From Planctomycetota bacterium (GTDB lineage Bacteria > Planctomycetota > PLA2 > JAEUHO01), in NCBI GenBank assembly GCA_028281445.1, contig JANQJW010000014.1, positions 30,026-94,025 of the forward strand: DNA of 64,000 bases, given 5' to 3'. The notes below the pieces were generated by a model. It did not search any database and was not told where the DNA came from. It saw only the letters and a list, made by a program, of their open reading frames with translations. Positions 756 through 43,238 of this stretch are shown here, piece by piece. Position 1 is the stretch's first letter. Each line of letters opens with the position of its first letter. The position numbers were made by a program, and so were the translations under genes.

Positions 756-3491
756 TTGGCGATGACCTTCCAGCATCCGGTCCTCTTCTGGGCGCTGCCG
801 GTGCTGGGTCTGTTGGTGTGGCTCCTGGAGCTACGCCTGCCTGCGGGCGACGTACGCCGCTTTGCACGCTGGAGCGTGCGCATGGCCCTGCTTGCCGTCA
901 TCGTCGCCGCGCTGGCGGGCCCGACACGCGAGCGCCGGGAACCGCTGGCACGCCGGGTCGTCGTTGCGGTGGACGCGTCCAATCGCATCACGCCCGGCGC
1001 GGAGGCGGAAGCGCGCGCGATCGCCGAGCGCCTCCGTTCGCAAGCGCGCGACGTCGGTGTCACCTTCGACACGATCCGGTTCACGACCAAGGCGGCCGCC
1101 CCCGGCGAGGCGCCGCCCGCCTCCGAGACGAGCTTCGGCGCAACGGGCCTCGCCGGTGCCCGCCTGCGCTTTCGCGAGCACGAGACGGGCGGCATCGTGC
1201 TTGTCAGCGACGGGCACGGCAACCTGAGCGGCGTCTCCGCTGCCGCCGACGCGTTGCGCCGCGAAGGCCTGGCCGTGGCCTCCGCCGCCGTGCCGGCGGA
1301 CGTCCCCGTCGTTGCGCGTCCGCCGCGCATCGTCAGCCTGCGCGCGCCGCGTCGCACGAGCGGCCCCTTCGAAGTGCGCTGCTCGATAGAGGCCGATGCG
1401 CCGAAGCGCCTGGAAGTCGTCCTGCGCGTGAACGGCGTCGAGCGCGGCCGTGATGCGGTCGAGGCGCGGCCCGACGGCGAAGTGCTCTTCGAGGACGTCG
1501 AGCTCGAACCCGGCCTACACGAGATCGCCGTCGAGCTGACCGACCCGGACGACAACGAAGAACGCACGCTGCGTCGGACGCTGGTCGAGGTCGGCACGCC
1601 GCCGCGCGTCGTCGCCCTGCTCGGCGACGCGGCGGGCTCGCCGTGGCGCAAGGCGCTCAGTGCGCAGGGTCTGCATGTAGCGGCCATCAAACCCGGCGGA
1701 CTCGCGGACTTCGTTGCCGACGGCCGGCGCGCCCCGGATCTCGTCCTTGCCGACGCAGCAGCACTCGCCGCGCTGCCGACGGCGGCTATTGCGCTCCTGG
1801 CGGAGCGCGTCCGCGAGGGACTCGGTCTGCTGATCGAAGCCGGCGGCTCGCAAGAGTCGTGGGACGCGCTCTCGCGCAGCGCGCTTGTCGGTCTCTTGCC
1901 CCTGCGCCCGCTGCCGGAACCGGAACCGCCGCCGCCGGAGCCCAAGCCGCAGGAAGAAGAGCCCGAGCCGCCGATCGATCCGCCGGAACCGGACGAAGGG
2001 CCGGGTCTGAAGGCCGAGCGGCGTCCGGAGGAGGCGCTGCCGATCACCCTGCTGCTCGTGCTGGACCGCAGCCCGAGCATGATCGGCGACAAGCTGCAGA
2101 TGGCGATCGAGGGGGCGCGCCAGGCGGCGCTCGCGCTCTCCCCCTGGGACCGAATCGGCGTCATCACGTTCGCGGACGACAGCACGCTCGACATCCGGCC
2201 GCGCAGCGCGCGGGGAGCGAGCTCGATTCCGCTATGGCTGAGCACCGTCGAGGCGGGCGGTAGGGGCACGAACATCTACGGCGCGCTGAAGCTCGCCTCG
2301 CGCGTGCTCGCACGCGAGAAGTCGCCGATCCTGCACCTGATTCTCCTCACCGACGGGCGCCAGTATCCGGACGGACCGATCTTCGGTCCGGTGGTCAAGC
2401 CGATGCGCGCCCGCGGCGTCACGATCACCGCGCTCGGAATCGGTCGCGGTGCACGCATGGATCAGTTGCGCGACATCGTGCAGTGGGCAGCCGCGGGCCA
2501 GGTGATCCCGGTCGGCAACATCGGCGCGATCCCGCGCGTGATCACGCGCGACACCATGAAGGTTGCCGAGAAGCGGCGCATCGACGCAGAGAAGCTCGAC
2601 GCGCGTCTGCGCGACAAGAACGCGGAGCCCAAGCCGCCCGAACCGCAGGAGGAGGAGAAGCCCCAGGAGCCGCGGCCGCGCAGTCCGGAGGACGCCGCGG
2701 GCCCGAAGGCGCCCGGGGCCGCGGACTCGGACACGCTGCTACCGCTGCGGGTCCGCCGGGCGCACGAGGCGCTGGCGGGGCTCTCGGTTGCCGGCCTGCC
2801 CACGATCGGCCTGCCGCGGCGCAGCGAGCCCACCTACGACGCCGCCGTGCTGCTCGCCCGGGAAGACGGGCGGCCCGTGCTGGCCGCCGGCCGCCCGGGA
2901 CTCGGCCGGGTGCTGGTGTGGACGCTGCCCGCGCGCGATCCGGGCATCTTCCGCTGGAAGGAGCTGGGCCGCCTCTACGGCCAGGCCGCGCGCTCGGTCA
3001 TCGCGCCGCGCGGTGCCTTCGCCTTCCTGCCCGAGGCGACCGTGGAGCAGGGTCCGGACGGCGCAGCGCTCCGCGTGATCTGGCCGCCGGGCGAGACACA
3101 GCGCAGGCTGCGTGTCCGCTGGGAGGGCCCGAACGGCATGAAGGACCTGGGCGTGTTCGCGCCGGATGACGGCGTCGAGGGGCGCATCCTGCCAGCAGCA
3201 CCCGTCGCCGCCCTCTGCCGGCTGCACCTGGAGCTCGAGCCGGGCCCCGCGCTGCCCGGCGTGTCGTACCTGGTAGAACCACCGCCCGTGCGCGAGCCGA
3301 TGGCGGGCGACCGCGAAGGCCTCGCGGCGGCCGTCGGCAGTGCGCCCGATGCGTTGGACGGGTTCATCGCCGCGCTGCCGACGGGCACGCGACCGGTCAC
3401 GGTCCCGCTCTGGTCGTGGTTCCTGTGGCTCGCCGTCGCGCTGCTACCGCTCGACGTCTGGCTGCACCGGCGCCGGGGGCTCGCGCGATGA
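756..3491 (+). CDS. BatA-like von Willebrand factor A (VWA) domain protein, 911 aa, with the aerotolerance-regulator N-terminal double-TM domain.
   Basis: N-terminus MAMTFQHPVLFWALPVLGLLVWLL is the BatA N-terminal/TIGR02226-type double-TM signature. The VWA/MIDAS region is LLLVLDRSPSMIGDKL...GTNIYGAL...LILLTDGRQ. Two Pro/Glu-rich low-complexity segments (PEPEPPPPEPKPQEEEPEPP, EPKPPEPQEEEKPQEPRP) are encoded by duplicated DNA. The stop overlaps the pdxA start (ATGA). Confidence 0.7.
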   Translation: MAMTFQHPVLFWALPVLGLLVWLLELRLPAGDVRRFARWSVRMALLAVIVAALAGPTRERREPLARRVVVAVDASNRITPGAEAEARAIAERLRSQARDVGVTFDTIRFTTKAAAPGEAPPASETSFGATGLAGARLRFREHETGGIVLVSDGHGNLSGVSAAADALRREGLAVASAAVPADVPVVARPPRIVSLRAPRRTSGPFEVRCSIEADAPKRLEVVLRVNGVERGRDAVEARPDGEVLFEDVELEPGLHEIAVELTDPDDNEERTLRRTLVEVGTPPRVVALLGDAAGSPWRKALSAQGLHVAAIKPGGLADFVADGRRAPDLVLADAAALAALPTAAIALLAERVREGLGLLIEAGGSQESWDALSRSALVGLLPLRPLPEPEPPPPEPKPQEEEPEPPIDPPEPDEGPGLKAERRPEEALPITLLLVLDRSPSMIGDKLQMAIEGARQAALALSPWDRIGVITFADDSTLDIRPRSARGASSIPLWLSTVEAGGRGTNIYGALKLASRVLAREKSPILHLILLTDGRQYPDGPIFGPVVKPMRARGVTITALGIGRGARMDQLRDIVQWAAAGQVIPVGNIGAIPRVITRDTMKVAEKRRIDAEKLDARLRDKNAEPKPPEPQEEEKPQEPRPRSPEDAAGPKAPGAADSDTLLPLRVRRAHEALAGLSVAGLPTIGLPRRSEPTYDAAVLLAREDGRPVLAAGRPGLGRVLVWTLPARDPGIFRWKELGRLYGQAARSVIAPRGAFAFLPEATVEQGPDGAALRVIWPPGETQRRLRVRWEGPNGMKDLGVFAPDDGVEGRILPAAPVAALCRLHLELEPGPALPGVSYLVEPPPVREPMAGDREGLAAAVGSAPDALDGFIAALPTGTRPVTVPLWSWFLWLAVALLPLDVWLHRRRGLAR

Positions 3492-4507
3492 GCCGGCCCA
3501 CGCTCGCCCTCACGCTCGGGGACGCCGCCGGCATCGGCCCGGAGATCGTGCTGCGCGCGATCACGGCACCCGACCCCGGTGCGCAACTGCTGGTCATCGG
3601 GTGCGCCGACGCCTTGCGGCGCGAGCTCGCACAGGTCGATGGCGCGCGACTGCCTCCGCTCGTCGAAGGCCCGGAGGGCCTGGGCGAGGTGCCGGGCGGC
3701 GTGGGTCTCTGGGACCGCTCCGCGGCGCTGGAGACGCTCCCCGCCTATGGGGTGATCGACGCCGCCTCCGGGGCGGCGTGCCACGCCTGGGTCTGCCAGG
3801 CCGCGTCGCTGGCGCGCGAAGGGCGTGTCGCGGGAGTCGTCACGGCCCCCATTCACAAGGGCGCCTGGCATGCCGCGGGCAGCGCCCATCCGGGGCACAC
3901 GGAGGTGCTGTGCGCCGAGGCGGGCAGCGAGCGCGTGCTCATGACCTTCGTGGCCGGCGCGCTGCGGGTCGCCCTCGCCACGATCCATGTGCCTCTGCGA
4001 ACGGTGGCGGATCGGCTCGAGACCGACCGGCTTGCTGCAGACCTGGTGTTGTTCTCGGCGGAGATCGCGCGGTGGTTCGGTTGCGCGCGGCCCCGGATCG
4101 GCGTCTGCGGGCTCAACCCCCACGCAGGCGAGGACGGCCTATTCGGCCACGAGGACGCCGAGATCATCGCCCCGGCCGTTGCGGCCGCCCGAGCAGCCGG
4201 GGTGGACGCAGAGGGCCCCCTGCCGGCAGACGCGTGCATCCCCGCAGGCGCGCGCGGGCGCTACGACGCCGTGTTCGCGATGTATCACGACCAGGCCCTG
4301 CCGGCGGTCAAGGCCCTGGCGCCGCGGGAGAGCGTCAACGTCACGCTCGGCCTGCCGTTCGTGCGCACCTCGGTCGATCACGGAACCGCCTTCGACATCG
4401 CGGGCCGTGGTATCGCGACCGCCGAGTCGCTGCACGCAGCCGTCGCACTGGCGGCTGAGATGGTGACGCCCCCGTCGAAGCGCGCAGAACGCCCGCCAAC
4501 CCGGTAA
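3488..4507 (+). CDS. pdxA: 4-hydroxythreonine-4-phosphate dehydrogenase PdxA.
   Basis: Full-length PdxA-like sequence with the GLNPHAGEDG motif, HTEVL, and the conserved His/metal ligands. The ATG at 3488 overlaps the upstream stop. Confidence 0.8.
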   Translation: MSRPTLALTLGDAAGIGPEIVLRAITAPDPGAQLLVIGCADALRRELAQVDGARLPPLVEGPEGLGEVPGGVGLWDRSAALETLPAYGVIDAASGAACHAWVCQAASLAREGRVAGVVTAPIHKGAWHAAGSAHPGHTEVLCAEAGSERVLMTFVAGALRVALATIHVPLRTVADRLETDRLAADLVLFSAEIARWFGCARPRIGVCGLNPHAGEDGLFGHEDAEIIAPAVAAARAAGVDAEGPLPADACIPAGARGRYDAVFAMYHDQALPAVKALAPRESVNVTLGLPFVRTSVDHGTAFDIAGRGIATAESLHAAVALAAEMVTPPSKRAERPPTR

Positions 4508-10246: not shown

Positions 10247-10795
10247 GTGAGCGAAGATCCGCACACGTTCGAAGGCACCTGCCTGCCGTTTCTGCCGGAC
10301 TGCTACGCCTTCGCGCTGTCGCTCACGCGCAAGAGCCACGAGGCCGAGGACCTCGTGCAGGACACCTTCCTGAAGGCCCAGCGCGCGTTCGCATCGTTCC
10401 AGCAGGGCACCAACGCCAAGGCCTGGTTGTTCACGATCCTGCGCCGACTGCACATCGACATGTACCGGCGCGGACGCCTGCGCCCCACGGCGTTGCCCGA
10501 CGACGAGCTGACCGAGATGGCGCCGCCCAAGGAGGACGACGGCGAGGCGCCGATCGACCTGCCCTGGGACGACCTGCCGCCCGGGGCCGTCGAGCGTGCG
10601 GTGGATGCGGTCCCGGACCCCTTCCGGCTGCCCGTGCGCCTGCGGGACCTCGACGGGCTGTCCTACCGGGAGATCGGCGAGATCCTGGCCATTCCGTCCG
10701 GAACGGTCATGAGCCGCCTGCACCGGGGCCGGGAATACGTGCGCAGGGCCCTCGTTGAGCAGGTGGAAGGAGCCCGGTCGGACGCCGCCGAATGA
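10247..10795 (+). CDS. ECF (RpoE-like) sigma-70 family sigma factor. The start is uncertain: GTG 10247 or ATG 10181.
   Basis: Region 2 (LVQDTFLKAQRAFASF...AWLFTILRRLHID) and region 4 (LSYREIGEILAIPSGTVMSRLHRGR) are both present. The stop overlaps the anti-sigma start (ATGA). Confidence 0.75.
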   Translation: MSEDPHTFEGTCLPFLPDCYAFALSLTRKSHEAEDLVQDTFLKAQRAFASFQQGTNAKAWLFTILRRLHIDMYRRGRLRPTALPDDELTEMAPPKEDDGEAPIDLPWDDLPPGAVERAVDAVPDPFRLPVRLRDLDGLSYREIGEILAIPSGTVMSRLHRGREYVRRALVEQVEGARSDAAE

Positions 10796-21647: not shown

Positions 21648-22176
21648 TCCTGAAGGCCTCTGGACCTACCGCGCGGGAATCCTACCTGCCGGGCTCCGAC
21701 ACCGTAAGTCCGTACCCCTACGCCAGTAGAGGCCAAAACGGACGATTCGATGCCTGCCCGGTCGGACCAGCCTCCCAACGCACCTTCCTAGCGCGTGGAG
21801 ACCTCTGGCCCGGCCCCCCGACTGCAATCCAAAGGCCCATTGCCCCGCAACCCGCCGCAGCGCATAAGCCATTTATGTAACAAGGTTTGCACGGGGAGCG
21901 GGGCATGGGGCCCAGGGCTCGGTCCGTGCGGCGATGGGCCGTCGAGCGATTCCGCACGGATGCCAGCACGCATCTGAAGTGAATCCGTCAGACTTCCAAA
22001 CGCTCCCTGAACGGGCCGGAACAGGCGATTTCTGGGGCTCTGGGCCCAGGACCGTGTACTGAAGCGTGTGGGGTGGGGCGGCGTGTAGCAGAACGAGACG
22101 CTGAATTGGAGTGCGGAGGCGGCTGGGGACGGCGTTGACACCGCGCACGCCACATCGTGTTCGCCGGTGCGGGGCT

Positions 22177-22308
22177 CGATGTAGGGGCGACCCGAGGCCC
22201 CTGGCCGAGTGGTCGGCCCGGTTCGGCGGATCGGGTACCGCGATCTATGGAGCAAGGACGTCGCGGGCCGACCACTCGCTCGCGCTCGGGTCGGTCGCCC
22301 CTACATCG
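22177..22308. repeat. Palindromic intergenic repeat element, family A, copy 1: two ~43-bp inverted arms around a ~43-bp spacer.
   Basis: cgatgtaggggcgacccgaggcccctggccgagtggtcggcccg ... cgggccgaccactcgctcgcgctcgggtcggtcgcccctacatcg. The arms are reverse complements. The same arm sequence recurs at 37029..37148 and 43098..43218. Confidence 0.8.
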
Positions 22309-29123: not shown

Positions 29124-30337
29124 GCTTCACCTCCGGCAGGGGGACTCGTCGGCAGCGGCTGGTAGCGGTCCTCGTCGCGCTTCCACCCGAGCCAGGCGAC
29201 GAAGAACGCGGTGCCCAGCAGAGCCACCGGCAGGATCCACAGCAGCCAGCTCCAGCCGAGCGCCAGCGCGCCGGCCGTCATCATGATGTTGACGAGCATC
29301 AGCGGCAGGAAGATCGCCCAACCGAGGCGCATGAGCTGGTCGTAGCGGAAGCGCGGGATCGTCCAGCGCACCCAGATGAAGGCGAACATGAAGAAGAGCA
29401 CCTTCACCGAGAAGATGAGCACGCCGACGGTCCAGTGGATCTTCTCGAGGCCGAAGAACGTCCAGCCGCCGAGGAAGAGCGTGACCGCGAGCGCGGCGCC
29501 GACGGCCATCGCCGTGTACTCCGCCATGAAGAACAGCGCGAACTTCATGGACGAGTACTCGGTGTGGTAGCCGGCGACGAGCTCGGTCTCCGACTCCGGC
29601 ATGTCGAACGGCAGGCGGTTCGTCTCGGCGTACGACGACGTAAGGAAGACGAAGAAGGCCAGCGGCTGCGTGAGGATCAGCCAGCCGTTCTGGCTCTGCC
29701 AGTTGACCATGTCGCCGAGGTTGAGCGAGCCCGTCATGAGAATGACCGGCACGATCGCGAGACCGAGGCTCAGCTCGTAGGAGATCATCTGCGCGCTGGC
29801 GCGCACGCCGCCGAGGAGCGAGTACTTCGAGTTGCTGGCCCAGCCGCCGAGCGTGATGCCGTAGACGCCCAGGCCGGCGACGGCGAGCACGTAGAGAGCG
29901 CCGATGTCGAGGTTGGCGATCTGCCAGGACGTGGCGACGCCCTCTTCATCCACGGTGCCCGTATAGGGAATCACCGCGAACATGATCATCGCCGGCACGA
30001 CCGTGATGGCGGGCGCCAGCGTGTACATCCACTTGTTCACGTGCTTCGGAATGACGTCTTCCTTGAACATGAACTTGCCGAGGTCGGCGAGCGGCTGCAG
30101 CAGGCCCTCGGGGCCTACGCGGTTGGGGCCGAGGCGGTCCTGCATCCACGCGCTGACGCGACGCTCCGCCCAGACCATCAGGGCGCTGAGGATCAGGATG
30201 ATGTGCACGATCAGCAGCAGCAGCAGCAGGCGGCCGAGCGCCCATCCAAAGGTGACGCTGCCGTCCTCCGCCAGCGCAAACCAGTCCCAGATGCTTGCCA
30301 GGAAGGCTGCGGGGACGATCGTCAGGAGATCCATCAT
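29120..30337 (-). CDS. nuoH: NADH-quinone oxidoreductase subunit H.
   Basis: WAERRVSAWMQDRLGPNRVGPEGLLQPLAD is the NuoH/ND1 signature. Confidence 0.9.
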   Translation of the reverse strand: MMDLLTIVPAAFLASIWDWFALAEDGSVTFGWALGRLLLLLLIVHIILILSALMVWAERRVSAWMQDRLGPNRVGPEGLLQPLADLGKFMFKEDVIPKHVNKWMYTLAPAITVVPAMIMFAVIPYTGTVDEEGVATSWQIANLDIGALYVLAVAGLGVYGITLGGWASNSKYSLLGGVRASAQMISYELSLGLAIVPVILMTGSLNLGDMVNWQSQNGWLILTQPLAFFVFLTSSYAETNRLPFDMPESETELVAGYHTEYSSMKFALFFMAEYTAMAVGAALAVTLFLGGWTFFGLEKIHWTVGVLIFSVKVLFFMFAFIWVRWTIPRFRYDQLMRLGWAIFLPLMLVNIMMTAGALALGWSWLLWILPVALLGTAFFVAWLGWKRDEDRYQPLPTSPPAGGEA

Positions 30338-33220: not shown

Positions 33221-33739
33221 TTACTCGCAGGCGTCCATGAGCTTCTCGAGCTGCTCGTTGCTGACATTGACGTGCGGCTTGCCGTCGACGAACACGGCCG
33301 GCGCTGCCTCGCACAGGCCGAGGCACTCCATGTTCTTGACGAGGAACTTGCCGTCGGGACTCGTCATGCCGGGCTTCTCGCAGCCCGACTTGGCGAGTGC
33401 GGTCTCGCGCAGCTTCTCCGCCCCGAGCAGCCAGCACGTGAGAGTGCGGCAGACCCACACCTCGTGGCGCCCTGCGGGCTTGTCGTTGTACATGGCGTAG
33501 AACGTGAGCAGCCCCCGGATGTGGCTGTCGCTGACGCCCAGGTACTCGGCCACGCCGGCCTCGACCTCGGGGCTCACCCAGCCGCCGAAGTGACGCTGCG
33601 CGACATGAAGCACCGGCAGGCAGGCCGCCATGCGGGTCGGGTAGCGCGCGACGATCTCGTCGCACTCCTTCTTGATCTCCTTCGGCGGAAACTCGACCGC
33701 TTCAGGAGGACTCACGGGGGCCCCGTTGGTGCTGGTCAT
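33221..33739 (-). CDS. nuoE: NADH-quinone oxidoreductase subunit E.
   Basis: 2Fe-2S thioredoxin-like motifs CRTLTC...CLGLCEAAP. Start at MTSTNG. Overlaps the nuoD stop. Confidence 0.85.
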   Translation of the reverse strand: MTSTNGAPVSPPEAVEFPPKEIKKECDEIVARYPTRMAACLPVLHVAQRHFGGWVSPEVEAGVAEYLGVSDSHIRGLLTFYAMYNDKPAGRHEVWVCRTLTCWLLGAEKLRETALAKSGCEKPGMTSPDGKFLVKNMECLGLCEAAPAVFVDGKPHVNVSNEQLEKLMDACE

Positions 33740-34992
33740 TTGTCGCACTCCCCCATCACGAAGTCGATCGAACCGAGCATCGCGACGATGTCCGCGATGA
33801 GATGCCCGGGGACGATCTCCTTGAGGACCTGCAGGTTCACGAAGGAAGGCGCGCGGTACTTGAGGCGCCACGGCGCGGCACCGCCCTCGGAGCGGATGAT
33901 GTAGCCGGCCTCGCCCTTGGGGTTCTCGCTGTGGCTGTGGATCTCGCCCTTGGGCGTGTCCATCTCCCCGGTGATCAGCATGAACTGGTGGATCAGCTGC
34001 TCCATACCGGTCATGACGTCCTGCTTCTGGGGCAGCACGTACTTGGGCTCGTCGGCGAGGACCGGGCCGTCGGGAATGGAATCGATGGCCTGGACCACGA
34101 TGCGGGCCGACTGGCGCATCTCTTCCATGCGGACGAGGTAGCGGTCGTAGCTGTCGCCGTGGCGGCCGATCGGCACGTCGAAGTCGTAGTCCGCGTAGGT
34201 CCCGTACGGGCGGTCCTTGCGGACGTCGTAGCCCACGCCGCTGCCGCGCAAGCACGGTCCCGTGAGCCCGTAGCTCAGGGCCAGCTCGCGCGAGATGACG
34301 CCGACGCCCTCGTTGCGGATGCGCCAGATGCGGTTGTTCGTGAGCAGGTTCTCCCAGATGTCGACCTGCTTGTGGAAGTTGTCGCAGAATTCGCGCACGT
34401 CCTTGAGCCACTCGTCCTTGGCGTCGTACGCCAGACCGCCGATGCGCGCGTAGGTGGTGGTGAAGCGCGCGCCGGTGAGTGCTTCGAAGAAGTTGTAGAG
34501 GCGCTCGCGCTCCGTGAACGTGTAGAGGAAGACGGTCATCGCGCCGACGTCCATGCCGTACGCGCCGAGGCCGAGCAGGTGCGCCGACATGCGCGCGAGC
34601 TCACAGCAGATGACGCGAATCACCTGGGCGCGCGGCGGTGCCTGGATGCCGCAGACCTTCTCGAACGCCCAGGCGGCCGAGCAATTGTTGGCCAGCGGCG
34701 CGAGGTAGTCGAGGCGGTCGGTGTACGGGATGTAGCGGTGGTAGCCGAGCGATTCGCCGATCTTCTCCTTGCCGCGGTGCAGGTAGCCGACGTCGGGCGT
34801 GCATTTCACGACGCGCTCGCCGTCGACCTCCAGGACCAGGCGCAACACACCGTGCGTGGACGGGTGCTGCGGGCCCATGTTGAGCACCATGCGATCACCG
34901 GGATCGTCTCCCGCATCGAGCCGGATCTCCGGTTCGGGCGCCGGCGGTGCGGGCGGCGCCGTCGTGCTGAGCTGTTCGGGCGGCACGCTCAT
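33736..34992 (-). CDS. nuoD: NADH-quinone oxidoreductase subunit D.
   Basis: MVLNMGPQHPSTHGVLRL is the NuoD/49-kDa signature. The alternative upstream start at 35013 is less likely. Confidence 0.85.
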   Translation of the reverse strand: MSVPPEQLSTTAPPAPPAPEPEIRLDAGDDPGDRMVLNMGPQHPSTHGVLRLVLEVDGERVVKCTPDVGYLHRGKEKIGESLGYHRYIPYTDRLDYLAPLANNCSAAWAFEKVCGIQAPPRAQVIRVICCELARMSAHLLGLGAYGMDVGAMTVFLYTFTERERLYNFFEALTGARFTTTYARIGGLAYDAKDEWLKDVREFCDNFHKQVDIWENLLTNNRIWRIRNEGVGVISRELALSYGLTGPCLRGSGVGYDVRKDRPYGTYADYDFDVPIGRHGDSYDRYLVRMEEMRQSARIVVQAIDSIPDGPVLADEPKYVLPQKQDVMTGMEQLIHQFMLITGEMDTPKGEIHSHSENPKGEAGYIIRSEGGAAPWRLKYRAPSFVNLQVLKEIVPGHLIADIVAMLGSIDFVMGECDK

Positions 34993-35013
34993 GGAGCCTC
35001 GCAATGGCCCCAC

Positions 35014-35341
35014 GGAGGGGCCGAGGACAGGGTGAATTGCCGGGGAGATTACAGCGCGGGGAGCGTCCCGCTAAGCCCAGTCCGGGCGCTTGGAGTGGGT
35101 TCTGGGGGTTGGGTTCGAGATGGAGATGGAGATCGGGTGTTGGGTGGTGGGGTTGGGATGGAGATGGAGGTTGGGATAGAGCTTGGGCCGGGGCGCTGGC
35201 TGCAGCGGGGACGCCCGAGCAGTCCCTAGGCGGCGATTCCGGACCGATTCAGTCGCGGAAGCGCGCGGGGGGATAGAGCGAGGCGCAGCCGAACTCCGTG
35301 GGGGGCGCTGCCCCCCACAATGATCGACAACCGCTTCCGCT
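35014..35341 (-). other. Atypical 349-bp structured non-coding spacer between nuoC and nuoD (minus-strand transcript): hairpins followed by a long C/A-rich tract.
   Basis: No ORF >=60 aa on the coding strand. Minus-strand RNA: the nuoC stop codon is embedded in alternative 9-bp hairpins (CAACCGCUUCAGGGACUGAAGCGGAAGCGGUUG), then GGGGGGCAGCGCCCCCC, then a ~90-nt C/A-rich tract (CCCAACCUCCAUCUCCAUCCCAACCCC...). A hairpin GGCCCCUCCGUGGGGCC sits next to the nuoD SD. Every other nuo junction overlaps or has a gap of <=51 nt. Confidence 0.5.
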
Positions 35342-35866
35342 TCAGTCCCTGAAGCGGTTGTGTCCCTGCATGGGGAAGTCGCGCCGCAGCGGCCAGCCGT
35401 CGAAGTCCTGCGGCATGTAGATCCGCGTGAGGTCCGGGTGGCCCTCGAAGGGAATCCCGAACATGTCGAAGGTCTCGCGCTCGGACCAGTCGGCGGACTT
35501 CCAGATGTGGGAGACCGTCGGGACCGAATCGCCTTCTGCCACGCGAGTGCGCATCATTACGCGCTCCTGCGTGTCGACGTTCATGACCAGGCCGAGCACG
35601 GTGAACCGCTCGGGCTCGCGATCGGGGTAGTCCGTCGCCGTGTGGTCCACGAGCATCTCGAAGCCGGCCTGCTCCTTGAGCGCGGCCATCGCCTCGGCCC
35701 ACTTCGAGCGATGGACGCGGCAACCGGGGTAGCCGCCGTGCACCGGGTGCTCGGACCACTCCGGGTCGAACGGGGCCAGCGCCTGCTGCGTAGCCTCGGA
35801 GACGCCCTCGGGGGCGTCCGCCGTATAGACCAGGCAGCTCTCCGTGACGCGCTTCCCCTGGCTCAT
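35342..35866 (-). CDS. nuoC: NADH-quinone oxidoreductase subunit C.
   Basis: 30-kDa subunit motifs ([21 protein letters not shown]). Overlaps the nuoB stop. Confidence 0.85.
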
Positions 35867-36954: not shown

Positions 36955-37028
36955 TGCGCGGTATTCAACCGTGGCGGGGAGCCCCGGGCGACGAAAACCG
37001 CGCTCGCGGACGGCGCTTGGCCCTCGCT

Positions 37029-37148
37029 GGCCGACCACTCCGCTGCGCTCGGGTCGCCCCTACACCGCGCCCCTTGCCGGCGACCGCCCACAGGGGGAAG
37101 GACGATGTAGGGGCGACCCGAGGCCCGCAGGGCCGAGTGGTCGGCCCG
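37029..37148. repeat. Palindromic intergenic repeat element, family A, copy 2.
   Basis: ggccgaccactccgctgcgctcgggtcgcccctacaccg ... cgatgtaggggcgacccgaggcccgcagggccgagtggtcggcccg. Lies between nuoA and the FG-GAP lipoprotein gene. Confidence 0.8.
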
Positions 37149-37163
37149 CGATCCCGCCAGCGC

Positions 37164-39176
37164 CTACTTGAACTGCGGCAGCGCCTGCTTCTCCGCGTTG
37201 CCCGTGGCCCGGTCCAGGACGTACCAGGCCCCCGCCTCGAGCGGTCCGAACTCGGTCGCCTCGCGGTCCGCACCGGGCCAGATGACCCGGACCGTGCAGT
37301 CCGTCGCGCTCCCGAGCCCGAAGTGCTCACGGGGGTCGTCGCAGCCCAGGAAGGACTTCTGGCGGATGACGGCCATCCGCTGGGTCTTGCCGCCCGCCGT
37401 GACCTCGAGGAATGCCCCCAGGGCCTCCCGGTTGCCGCCCGGCTGGCGCAGGGACAGCTTGACCCAATTGGCGTCGGGCCCGGTCCGGCTCGTGTTGCGC
37501 AGCACCGTCGGTGCTTCGTTCATGTTGAGCACGACGACGTCCATCCGCCCGTCGTTGTCGAAGTCCCCGAAGCAGGCCTGGCGCGAGCAGCGGGCCACCG
37601 CCATGCCGTCGCCGGCATCGAGGTTCTCCTTGTTGGTCTCGGGCCCCGCGTTCTGTTGCGCCTTCGTGCCGATCTCGCGCATGCCGATGGACTTGGGATC
37701 CATGTTCTCGAAGAGGGCGTTGAGCTGGTCGTACTTGGCGCCCGTCTTCGCGAAGAGGTCGATCTCCTTGTAGACGTGGCCGTTGGCTACGTAGAGGTCC
37801 AGATCGCCGTCGTTGTCAAAGTCGTACCATCCGCAGCCCCAGGAGAGGTCGTAGTAGACCTGCTGGCCCATCGTCGGCAGGCCGCGGTCCTTGTAGTAGA
37901 CCGCGCCGCCTTGGCCGCCCACGATCTTCTGGACGTGCACGTTGTTGTAGTCGTGGCTGAAGTTGGTGATGAAGATGTCGATGCGCCCGTCCTGATCGAT
38001 GTCGACGGCCGACATGCCCATGCTCGCCTGCGGCGTGATCTGGCGACCGTACTTGATGCCGAGCGTGTCGCTGGTGTCGCGGAAGCGGATCTGGCCGCTG
38101 GCGGTGCGCTCCTGCTGCCACATCGTGTTCTCGATGGAGTCGTTGGCGACGTAGATGTCGAGCAGCCCGTCTTCATTGAAGTCCCAGATGAGGCTCGTGA
38201 AGGCGTAGAGGCCGATCCGCGGGCGGAGGCCGTACTGAACGGTCAGGTCGTCGAACGTGCCGTCCTCCATCTGGCGATAGAAGTTGTCGTGCTGGCCCAC
38301 CAGGCCGATCGGGCCGCAGTAGGCTGGTATGGCGCGCCAGCGGCAGGCGCGGCCGCTCACGGACTGGACGGGCACGCCCAGCTTGAGCTCCTGCACGACG
38401 CGCATGCGCTCGACCTCGGCCGCCGGATCCGAGTAGGCGGCGACATAGAGGTCGAGACGGTCGTCGCCGTCCACGTCCGCAACGCCGACGCAGGTGGACC
38501 ATTGAGCGGGATCGCCGAGCACGCCGACCTTCTCGGCGATGTCGGTGAACGTCCCGTTGCCGTTGTTGCGGTACAGGCGATTCGGGCCGAAGTTCGCCAC
38601 GAAGATGTCCATCAGCCCGTCCGCGTCGTAGTCGAAGGCCGTCGCGCCGAACGACCAGCGCTGCTCGTCGATGCCCGCTTCGAGCGCGACATCCGTGAAC
38701 GTGCCGTCACCGTTGTTGCGCCAGAGCTGGTCGCGGAAGATCTCCTTGCGGTCGGTCTTCTCCCGGAGAAGCGCGCGCAACTCGGAGGGGTTGCTGGGGT
38801 CGGCCTCGTGCACGAGGTCGTAGTTGCTGAACACGTCTCCATCTGGGACGTAGAGGTCGAGGAAGCCGTCGCCGTCGTAGTCGAGCCAGCAGCAGCCCGG
38901 GCCCACGGCTTCGATCAGGAACTCCTTCACGCCCGCGCGCCCGGAGTGATTCACGGCCGTCATGCCGGCCTCGGCCGTCATGTCGTCGAAGCGGATCTTG
39001 GTCGCCGGAGCGTCCACCCAGGGGTCGACGGCGGGGCCGGAGGGCTGTCCGCTCAGGCTGGTCAGGGTGCCGGCCGAGGAGTCTGCGTCGGAGTCGTCGC
39101 CGCAACCCCCGAGTCCGATGGGCGCGAGTCCCAGAAGCGCGCAGAGAAGAAGGGTGGTCGCGAACCGGGATGTCAC
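37164..39176 (-). CDS. FG-GAP/ASPIC-UnbV repeat lipoprotein (CRTAC1-like beta-propeller).
   Basis: Lipobox LGLAPIGLGGCG. Multiple FG-GAP-type repeats (DYDGDGFLDLYV, DYDADGLMDIFVAN, DVDGDDRLDLYVA, DFNEDGLLDIYVAN, DIDQDGRIDIFITN, DFDNDGDLDLYVANG, DFDNDGRMDVVV). Confidence 0.75.
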   Translation of the reverse strand: MTSRFATTLLLCALLGLAPIGLGGCGDDSDADSSAGTLTSLSGQPSGPAVDPWVDAPATKIRFDDMTAEAGMTAVNHSGRAGVKEFLIEAVGPGCCWLDYDGDGFLDLYVPDGDVFSNYDLVHEADPSNPSELRALLREKTDRKEIFRDQLWRNNGDGTFTDVALEAGIDEQRWSFGATAFDYDADGLMDIFVANFGPNRLYRNNGNGTFTDIAEKVGVLGDPAQWSTCVGVADVDGDDRLDLYVAAYSDPAAEVERMRVVQELKLGVPVQSVSGRACRWRAIPAYCGPIGLVGQHDNFYRQMEDGTFDDLTVQYGLRPRIGLYAFTSLIWDFNEDGLLDIYVANDSIENTMWQQERTASGQIRFRDTSDTLGIKYGRQITPQASMGMSAVDIDQDGRIDIFITNFSHDYNNVHVQKIVGGQGGAVYYKDRGLPTMGQQVYYDLSWGCGWYDFDNDGDLDLYVANGHVYKEIDLFAKTGAKYDQLNALFENMDPKSIGMREIGTKAQQNAGPETNKENLDAGDGMAVARCSRQACFGDFDNDGRMDVVVLNMNEAPTVLRNTSRTGPDANWVKLSLRQPGGNREALGAFLEVTAGGKTQRMAVIRQKSFLGCDDPREHFGLGSATDCTVRVIWPGADREATEFGPLEAGAWYVLDRATGNAEKQALPQFK

Positions 39177-43094: not shown

Positions 43095-43097
43095 ACG

Positions 43098-43218
43098 CGG
43101 GCCGACCACTCGCTTCGCTCGGGTCGCCCCTACACCGATCCCCCACGTGTGCGCGACCGCCGGCCGTCGCCGCGATGTAGGGGCGACCCGAGGTCCGCAG
43201 GGCCGAGTGGTCGGCCCG
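43098..43218. repeat. Palindromic intergenic repeat element, family A, copy 3.
   Basis: cgggccgaccactcgcttcgctcgggtcgcccctacaccg ... cgatgtaggggcgacccgaggtccgcagggccgagtggtcggcccg. Starts 3 nt after the methyltransferase stop codon. Confidence 0.8.
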
Positions 43219-43238
43219 CGAATGTGGATCCGTACGCC

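Follow-up and report, generated by a model that had tools for sequence, protein, structure and literature searches.

Why do two neighboring genes of an otherwise compact complex I operon stand several hundred nucleotides apart? The question is raised by a 64-kb stretch of DNA (positions 30,026 to 94,025 of contig JANQJW010000014.1, in full the window of this study), which carries a complete nuoA-N cluster on its minus strand, running from 36954 down to 22344. The 14 nuo genes meet at 13 junctions. Twelve of these measure between -13 and +51 nt, and the remaining one, between nuoC and nuoD, is occupied by a spacer of 349 nt. The compactness of the operon elsewhere had been recognized in the initial annotation of this DNA, although its count of thirteen compact junctions out of fourteen has to be corrected to twelve out of thirteen. 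Judging from the sequence of the spacer and of its counterparts in related lineages, it is genuine non-coding DNA, old and fast-changing, that was most likely inherited rather than newly inserted. A function for the window's copy is plausible. Our favored, though tentative, reading is that the spacer forms a boundary between nuoABC and nuoD-N, made up of hairpins for a 3′ end, a tract resembling a Rho entry site, and an independent start region for nuoD.

The nuoC–nuoD gap

The extent of the gap follows from the ends of the two genes. On the transcribed minus strand, nuoC (35342..35866; 174 aa, Complex1_30kDa) ends with a TGA at 35344-35342. The nuoD start was placed at the ATG at 34992-34990, because the relatives that have a spacer all begin with ATG AGC GTG CC, which the window matches. 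With the ATG at 34992 and the nuoC stop at 35342, the gap therefore spans 34993-35341, or 349 nt. The same length had been reported before and fits this ATG; the boundary at 35014 given with it came from an in-frame GTG upstream of the ATG. The nuoD gene itself (33736..34992, minus strand; 418 aa) is intact, with a GC content at third codon positions (GC3) of 0.93 and a gene-like codon bias. Its initiation region, GAGGCUCC AUG AGC GUG (34986..35000, minus strand), contains a putative ribosome-binding site, GAGG at 35000-34997, five bases before the ATG, and the string (C/U)CCC AUG AGC GUG CC is conserved in relatives.

An artefact would be the most trivial answer to our question: the gap might have been created by a mis-assembly, or it might hide a small protein gene. 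Both are hardly credible. The Logan assembly made from run SRR20820735 (L015) contains an identical stretch of 2368 bases that takes in the spacer, which argues against a contig-joining error, with the reservation that the reads are possibly the same as those behind the window's own assembly. The source is an uncultured member of the Planctomycetota, and the nearest match to its NuoC in any collection is at most 81% identical. A missed gene could be sought in a 90-aa antisense open reading frame (ORF; 35004-35276) or in an 89-codon stretch that is open in the nuoD frame, but stop codons occur at chance number in each frame. Coding signal was absent in any frame, the GC3 of the spacer being 0.71, 0.68, and 0.64 by phase as compared with 0.91-0.98 in the nuo genes. 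Genes in this DNA combine a GC3 of 0.91-0.98 with a GC content of 0.33-0.46 at second positions, whereas the two antisense ORFs reach 0.62-0.67 at third positions, against more than 0.9 in real genes. None of the spacer frames matched Pfam, and the 90-aa antisense ORF had no homolog among 5.8 billion proteins. The search for a conserved small ORF that could explain the gap thus ended without a find, which agrees with the earlier view that no plausible ORF lies here. Together, the gene coordinates and the absent coding signal confirm a 349-nt non-coding gap. A decayed nuoD 5′ end or a low-complexity linker was also considered and rejected, as no similarity was found and the codon endings were unlike those of this genome.

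Hairpins and a G-depleted tract on the transcribed strand

The spacer is unusually structured at its 5′ end and extreme in composition. These properties are specific to the transcribed strand, and all of them lie beyond chance, which bears out this part of the initial annotation. Hairpin A (CCGCUUCAG-GGA-CUGAAGCGG; 35337..35357, minus strand) has a 9-bp stem and a predicted stability of -14.4 kcal/mol, with the UGA stop of nuoC within its 3′ arm. Hairpin B (ACAACCGCUUC-N13-GAAGCGGUUGU; 35327..35361, minus strand) forms 11 bp at a predicted -16 to -17 kcal/mol. The 5′ arm is supplied by the last nuoC codons (AAC CGC TTC AGG GAC TGA) and is common to both hairpins, which are mutually exclusive for this reason. 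The exclusivity and the 9 bp of hairpin A had been described correctly, and only hairpin B, likewise taken for a 9-bp stem, turned out to be longer. The reported G6C/GC6 hairpin was also found (GUGGGGGGC-AGC-GCCCCCCAC; 35298..35318, minus strand), with 9 bp, -18.8 kcal/mol, and no U-run behind it. Of the 11 perfect hairpins in the 64 kb whose stems reach 9 bp or more, three fall within 35298-35359, and folding of the 76-nt hairpin module gave z = -4.96, with none of 200 shuffles as good. The module is the sole significantly structured part of the spacer. Neither the GC-rich middle segment (35190..35297, minus strand; z = -1.3) nor the distal segment (34985-35085; z = -1.1) folds better than its shuffles.

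The stem of hairpin A includes a rare codon. The penultimate Arg codon of NuoC is AGG (35348-35350), which makes up 1.5% of the Arg codons in the nuo genes and stands where relatives use CGG. By base-pairing with the U in the UGA stop, its A completes the 9-bp stem. The codon may have been selected for the sake of the stem, or a template-switch mutation may have turned the sequence into a perfect palindrome. The alternative 3′ arms of hairpins A and B arise from a local tandem duplication of AAGCGG.

Two exclusive hairpins at a stop codon call to mind a dedicated regulatory RNA, that is, an attenuator that senses a ligand or factor through alternative folds, or a small RNA encoded on either strand. 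The two folds are nearly isoenergetic (-14.4 versus -16 to -17 kcal/mol), the rare AGG codon completes one of them, and stop-codon-spanning hairpins occur in four lineages, namely the window and its relatives L026, L027, and L031. We nevertheless regard this explanation as improbable. A terminating ribosome would melt both hairpins and would therefore leave no sensing during translation, and the simple AAGCGG duplication accounts for the alternative 3′ arms. No intrinsic terminator was found on the minus strand between 33500 and 37500; the hairpins in the stop region are followed by AAGCGG and GGAGUUCGG, not by U-runs. The classical attenuator that had been suggested thus lacks its terminator half, since no hairpin precedes a U-run, although the alternative hairpins do exist. 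Rfam gave nothing at gathering score in the window, where a permissive scan returned only chance matches to frameshift-hairpin models (E = 0.3-5), and no match in the loci of eight relatives, spacers included. No conserved aptamer-like core or motif was seen. There is no tRNA or tmRNA in or near the spacer, the single tRNA of the window being located at 10312-10408. A scan for the sigma-70 promoter consensus, which may not be that of a planctomycete, gave no match. With neither an Rfam family nor a promoter-like site, the embedded small RNA once proposed for this locus found no support.

Beyond the hairpins and the middle segment, the RNA enters a C/A-rich, G-depleted tract (35075..35189, minus strand) that is predicted to be single-stranded. 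The 78-nt core of the tract (35104-35181) contains 44 C and 2 G and is the most skewed stretch in the 64 kb; the runner-up among 78-nt windows, with both strands counted, has 40 C but 12 G. Over 100 nt, the GC skew of the tract is 0.83, as compared with a 99.9th percentile of 0.53. The mean unpaired probability is 0.71, and the predicted fold amounts to -10 kcal/mol over 115 nt. The repeats that had been noticed here are real: the tract is composed of a direct repeat of 38-42 nt (35092-35133 and 35130-35171; 74% identical) and also holds a hexamer repeated 2.8 times (35117-35133). On the opposite, plus strand, which is the template of the nuo transcript, the tract reads as a canonical G-quadruplex motif (GGGTGTTGGGTGGTGGGGTTGGG, 35135..35157; four runs of at least three G, loops of 1-7 nt), one of only four in the 64-kb window. 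The G-quadruplex considered in the initial annotation is thus present as a sequence motif. The only other such motif on the plus strand (21893-21917) lies in a non-coding region of about 700 nt beyond nuoN.

Rho-dependent terminators can be recognized by a 78-nt window in RNA free of ribosomes in which C outnumbers G (C/G above 1), followed by a GC-rich hairpin no more than 150 nt downstream (PMC6407284). In the spacer, such a 78-nt window is found in ribosome-free RNA, has a C/G ratio above 1, and is predicted to be unpaired. About 82-98 nt beyond the tract core stands a GC-rich hairpin, GGCCCC-UCCGU-GGGGCC. By its sequence, the tract looks like a Rho entry (rut) site or a ribosome standby site.

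The second of these possibilities leads to an explanation by translation alone, in which the C/A-rich tract of one polycistronic mRNA acts as a standby site or enhancer that loads 30S subunits, lets them get to the nuoD start behind its GC hairpins, and so makes up for the lost coupling to nuoC. Known standby sites and CA-rich enhancers (MS2 coat, tisB; PMC5934652, PMC6690012) also place a single-stranded C/A-rich segment upstream of a start that is flanked by stable structure. CA-repeat tails strongly raise translation from structured starts, and the tisB standby site lies about 100 nt upstream (PMC5934652). The predicted single-strandedness of the tract and the hairpin directly upstream of the Shine–Dalgarno (SD) sequence would fit such a role, which we nonetheless consider quite unlikely. 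The tract is much longer than a standby role would require and is not adjacent to the start; it stops about 80-110 nt short of it, with structured RNA between. Standby tails saturate at 16-18 nt (PMC5934652), so that some 110 nt would be excessive. The SD/AUG region is not strongly sequestered, having an unpaired probability of 0.45 in the predicted fold. An upstream segment that might pair with the invariant AUGAGCGUG start was looked for and rejected, as in none of seven lineages was such pairing better than in shuffles. Moreover, the relatives L007 and L031 have no comparable tract.

The hairpin expected next to the nuoD SD sequence is the same GGCCCC-UCCGU-GGGGCC element. It was located at 35006..35022 on the minus strand (6 bp, -13.0 kcal/mol), just ahead of the GAGG. 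Further upstream, the AT-rich octamer TGTAATCT (35046..35053, minus strand) has A or T at six of its eight bases, and its GTAA lies 56 nt before the ATG. The relatives L007, L028, and L031 carry TTGnCGTAAsnT, with the GTAA exactly 61 nt before each ATG. The hexamer TAATCT of the window (35051-35046) stands near the position of the TAAsnT conserved in these three, a correspondence that is not significant across all lineages. The octamer might be a -10-like or processing motif, but as such it is a weak candidate.

A further feature of the middle segment concerns the end of nuoC. At a distance of 93 nt (31 codons) beyond the nuoC end CGCTTCAGGGACTGA (35342-35356), and in frame with it, the look-alike CGCTTCCGCGACTGA (35249-35263) is found. 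A ribosome reading through the nuoC stop would come to RFRD-stop once more at CGCTTCCGCGACTGA. The match is not statistically significant. A decayed duplicate of the nuoC 3′ end was rejected, as 97 of 300 shuffles scored as well.

The same junction in related Planctomycetota

The spacer had been described as an insertion into the operon. A private insertion was dropped once long spacers turned up at the same junction in eight other lineages (L007, L026-L031, and L034). In all, a spacer of 113-849 nt is present here in nine or ten out of some 21 lineages of related Planctomycetota, most outgroups included. Arranged by the identity of their NuoC to that of the window, they comprise L030 (78%; at least 64 nt, where the contig ends), L028 (75%; 849 nt), L031/L032 (about 71%; 272 nt), L007 (69%; 188 nt), L026 (60%; 286 nt), L027 (59%; 422 nt, followed by a gene other than nuoD), L034 (56%; 378 nt), and L029 (52%; 113 nt). 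L030 groups with the window in a tree of NuoC only. A tight junction of 3-13 nt, TAG-GGGGGCGAAGC-GTG, is found in L001-L006, L016, L017, and L021-L025, which are the closest matches.

In a tree of NuoB, NuoC, and NuoD, the spacer-bearing L026/L034, L027/L029, and L007 branch outside the group that holds the tight-junction lineages. With weak support, the tree intersperses the window, L030, and L028/L031 among this group, and the tight-junction lineages were monophyletic in only 9 of 300 bootstraps. The tight junction looks derived, because spacers occupy the same junction in eight other lineages including most outgroups. Read most simply, these sequences point to an ancestral spacer and to a tight junction produced by deletion, in the course of which the nuoD start shifted to a GTG (Val3 in the window). 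The string (C/U)CCC ATG AGC GTG CC is invariant in six spacer lineages (the window, L026, L028, L029, L031, and L034), and in the short-gap lineages nuoD starts at or near that GUG.

The relatives' spacers are homologous to one another at least partly. Those of L030 and L028 have the first 60 nt after the stop in common (z = 5.7), and those of L027 and L028 both carry CCATCCAGCGCGCC, which was seen nowhere else among the fetched loci. The TTGnCGTAAsnT of L007, L028, and L031, always equally far from the ATG, is a further sign of such homology. The window's spacer had no significant alignment to any other spacer. Its best score (z = 2.26, against L028) came from a diffuse alignment, and homology to the other spacers was rejected on these grounds. 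A search for a motif upstream of nuoD common to all spacers likewise yielded none beyond chance. Sister lineages gave a different result in the block that precedes nuoD. The identity between L026 and L034 is 80.6% over 103 nt, as compared with 41-57% at four-fold degenerate sites, and that between L028 and L031 is 76%, as compared with 61-72%. The conserved 100 nt or so in these sister pairs, together with the invariant start string, argue that the nuoD-proximal part is functional in those lineages. The comparison with relatives that had been called for thus gave a divided answer, as the window's spacer aligns with none while the sister lineages keep their last 100 nt or so above the four-fold level. 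For covariation, the sister pairs provided only one or two double changes in two-sequence alignments, too few sequences to be informative.

Some relatives show peculiarities at this junction. Within their 80%-conserved block, L026 and L034 contain a conserved upstream ORF of 14 codons (MAIHAPPMRDPCAP at 2283-2327 of L026 and MAVRRTPPRELCAP at 2375-2419 of L034), the TGA of which overlaps the nuoD ATG (ATGA). As an explanation for the window this ORF was discarded, since it is confined to these two lineages; the corresponding frame of the window lacks a start codon. In L027, the spacer is followed by a gene (2460-3537) for a protein without a Pfam family above threshold. This gene is not nuoD, and the complex I cluster of L027 is therefore broken exactly at this junction.

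Judging from their repeats, the spacers are turning over quickly through tandem duplication. In L028, a 152-nt unit is present 2.3 times, its copies being 95% identical (2209-2555). About three copies of some 95 nt can be discerned by eye in L027 (2038-2459), where Tandem Repeats Finder reported none. In L026, the final 16-18 nt of nuoC are repeated twice more directly after the stop, along with a pseudo-stop (2038-2075). Stretches with C in excess of G occur in six of eight spacers and are extreme only in the window.

The main rival account takes the spacer for tolerated filler: functionless DNA at a junction where changes in length do no harm, in flux through replication slippage and tandem duplication, carried along in one nuoA-N message, with nuoD using its own ribosome-binding site. 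We take this for a serious alternative, if on balance a somewhat unlikely one. It would accommodate a window spacer that is unlike every other and has no motif in common with them, the variation in length between 113 and 849 nt, and the intact operon of the one group without a spacer. Tandem duplications are indeed widespread, from the twofold 38-42 nt unit and the 2.8-fold hexamer of the window to the 152-nt unit of L028 and the nuoC end of L026, and the middle and distal segments of the window's spacer are structured no more than shuffles. What filler would not lead one to expect is persistence at one junction down to 52% NuoC identity, as bacteria usually delete useless DNA. Nor would it predict the last 100 nt or so in L026 and L034, conserved well above four-fold sites, or a hairpin cluster with z = -4.96 next to an extreme C/G bias in what should be neutral GC-rich sequence.

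A mobile element could also have left DNA at this junction. The window contains a REPIN-like repeat, consisting of inverted pairs of a palindromic unit of about 40 nt (GTAGGGGCGACCCGAGGCC..GGCCGAGTGGTCGGCC) that are some 45 nt apart. Copies are located at 22175-22305, 37020-37150, and 43095-43220, and the first two bracket the operon, right after nuoN and right before nuoA. These three intergenic sites, two of them flanking the nuo operon, and the perfect 10-nt distal inverted repeats CCCCACGGAG and CTCCGTGGGG within the spacer are what a remnant (the footprint of a miniature inverted-repeat transposable element, of a repetitive extragenic palindrome [REP], or of a REPIN) has in its favor. Such an origin is nevertheless very improbable. 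The spacer has no similarity to the resident REPIN-like unit, and it was rejected as a copy of that repeat. No part of it has a second copy in the 64 kb, no similarity to it was found in the relatives' loci or in plasmid or phage collections, and the junction was already expanded in the outgroups.

The other end of the nuoABC segment shows conservation of its own. A motif, GGTTGAATGTCG (CGTTCAATG in outgroups), is kept upstream of nuoA in L001-L006, L008, L017, L026-L029, and L034. In the window it is found at 36959-36970 on the minus strand and ends only 8 nt before the nuoA ATG, so close that the leader may be very short or lacking altogether. As GTTSAAT occurs only twice in the 64 kb, it does not serve as a general promoter box. 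A recurrence of GGTTGAATGTCG or of GGCAATTSCA in the spacer was looked for, and both were absent. Upstream of nuoA, L026, L027, L028, and L034 encode an FG-GAP/UnbV_ASPIC protein. In the window, this place is taken by a 670-aa gene (37164-39176), likened to it by position only.

A possible boundary between nuoABC and nuoD-N

With these observations in hand, we can outline how the spacer would work as a boundary between nuoABC and nuoD-N. The spacer RNA would be transcribed and left untranslated, and the translational coupling of NuoD to NuoC would be lost. The nuoD start is far from the nuoC stop, unlike in the tight-junction relatives; coupling is therefore impossible, and nuoD must initiate alone via its GAGG. 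The stop-codon hairpins and the G6/C6 hairpin may act as a barrier to 3′ exonucleases and so define and stabilize the end of the nuoABC message. The G-depleted, C-rich tract of about 110 nt would serve as a Rho entry site, with the downstream GC hairpins as pauses, and partial termination (attenuation) between nuoC and nuoD would result from the tract together with the pauses. After Rho termination, exonucleases would trim the message back to the hairpins, in the manner reported for the REP and puf stem-loops between cistrons. The expression of nuoD-N would restart from its own GAGG site, possibly with a promoter in the last 100 nt or so, and the central repeats would be expandable filler. Since nuoD-N is intact and has a strong codon bias, it must still be expressed, and termination would have to be partial or be followed by a promoter. 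The broken cluster of L027 indicates that nuoD can exist without nuoABC upstream. Roles in RNA processing and in translational decoupling, both named in the initial annotation, are plausible as candidates. The rho gene is absent from the 64-kb window.

A comparable arrangement is found at the end of the operon. The second-strongest 78-nt stretch with C in excess of G on the minus strand (22060-22137; 40 C, 12 G) lies about 200 nt after the nuoN stop and stands behind a palindromic repeat pair. As far as its sequence can tell, this layout mirrors that of the spacer, at the true end of the operon.

Among known systems, the spacer comes closest, by sequence criteria, to a Rho-dependent attenuator within an operon, joined to a hairpin of the kind that serves as an intercistronic decay terminator. 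Intercistronic stem-loops are said to act as decay terminators in malE-malF, where they are REP elements, and in the puf operon, reportedly since the work of Newbury in 1987 and Chen in 1988. The likeness to these and to the REPINs (PMC3337134) consists in stable GC hairpins right after the upstream cistron, without a U-run, in an energy operon. The spacer hairpins differ in being single-copy and outside the repeat family of the genome, and one of them has an arm inside coding sequence. For Rho, the closest parallel is the galT-galK junction of E. coli, where a C-rich rut site gives a shorter operon message (galET); this junction is 3 nt long, and the exposure of its rut site depends on a small RNA (PMC8577784). 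Like the Rho-dependent terminators and attenuators of lambda tR1 and galT-galK (PMC8577784, PMC6407284, PMC12360218), the spacer has 78 nt or more of unstructured RNA outside translation in which C far exceeds G, along with GC hairpins within 150 nt downstream and stable upstream hairpins to which a trimmed 3′ end could retreat, at a cistron junction within an operon. Its C/G ratio of 22 is far above that of typical rut sites. Unlike that of galT-galK, its tract is permanently untranslated, without exposure that depends on a small RNA, and the host is a GC-rich planctomycete.

The position of the break has parallels in other complex I operons. In plastids and cyanobacteria, an ndhC-ndhK-ndhJ operon, the counterpart of nuoA, nuoB, and nuoC, stands apart from ndhH, the counterpart of nuoD. 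The spacer lies at exactly this boundary. The cluster of L027 is actually broken here, whereas the two halves in the window are adjacent, co-oriented, and 349 nt apart. The nqo/nuo operons of Paracoccus and Rhodobacter contain extra reading frames between complex I genes. They resemble the window in having extra DNA in a compact operon, but their inserts are ORFs and the spacer has no coding signal. The opposite extreme to the spacer-split nuoC and nuoD is the fused NuoCD of E. coli and B. fragilis (PMC3144371).

Several points weigh against a boundary between nuoABC and nuoD-N. Tracts with C in excess of G follow stop codons at just 3 of 19 gene ends of this genome, and they were rejected as its general gene-end signal. 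They are weak or absent in the spacers of L007 and L031, and post-stop structure is significant in only two of eight spacer lineages (the window and L026). The window's spacer has no recognizable homolog, and selection on any part of it therefore cannot be demonstrated. One group of relatives has a junction of 3-13 nt, which makes the spacer dispensable. Complex I subunits are needed 1:1, so that attenuation between nuoC and nuoD would be without obvious benefit. Finally, strong termination by Rho would do harm if no promoter came after it, and no sigma-70-like promoter was found. In its most demanding form, the boundary would be a selected and long-lived one, with a Rho-type attenuator, protected nuoABC ends, and an independent nuoD-N promoter or leader, and would set NuoA, NuoB, and NuoC separately from the rest. 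We hold this form to be unlikely. Under it, the sequence would be free to turn over while the C-rich, G-poor composition and the hairpins stay.

The practical consequence is small under either reading, and no long-standing question depends on the spacer. Its interest lies in what it would say about operon organization, as complex I operons are usually taken as single, tightly coupled units. If the spacer is filler, an essential operon can harbor a hyper-variable gap that generates tandem repeats. If the boundary is real, the spacer would be a natural Rho-entry-like tract set by composition rather than by sequence, in a phylum whose termination and promoters are almost unstudied. And if the spacer has been kept at one junction over deep divergence, some bacteria would split the complex I operon into two expression modules.

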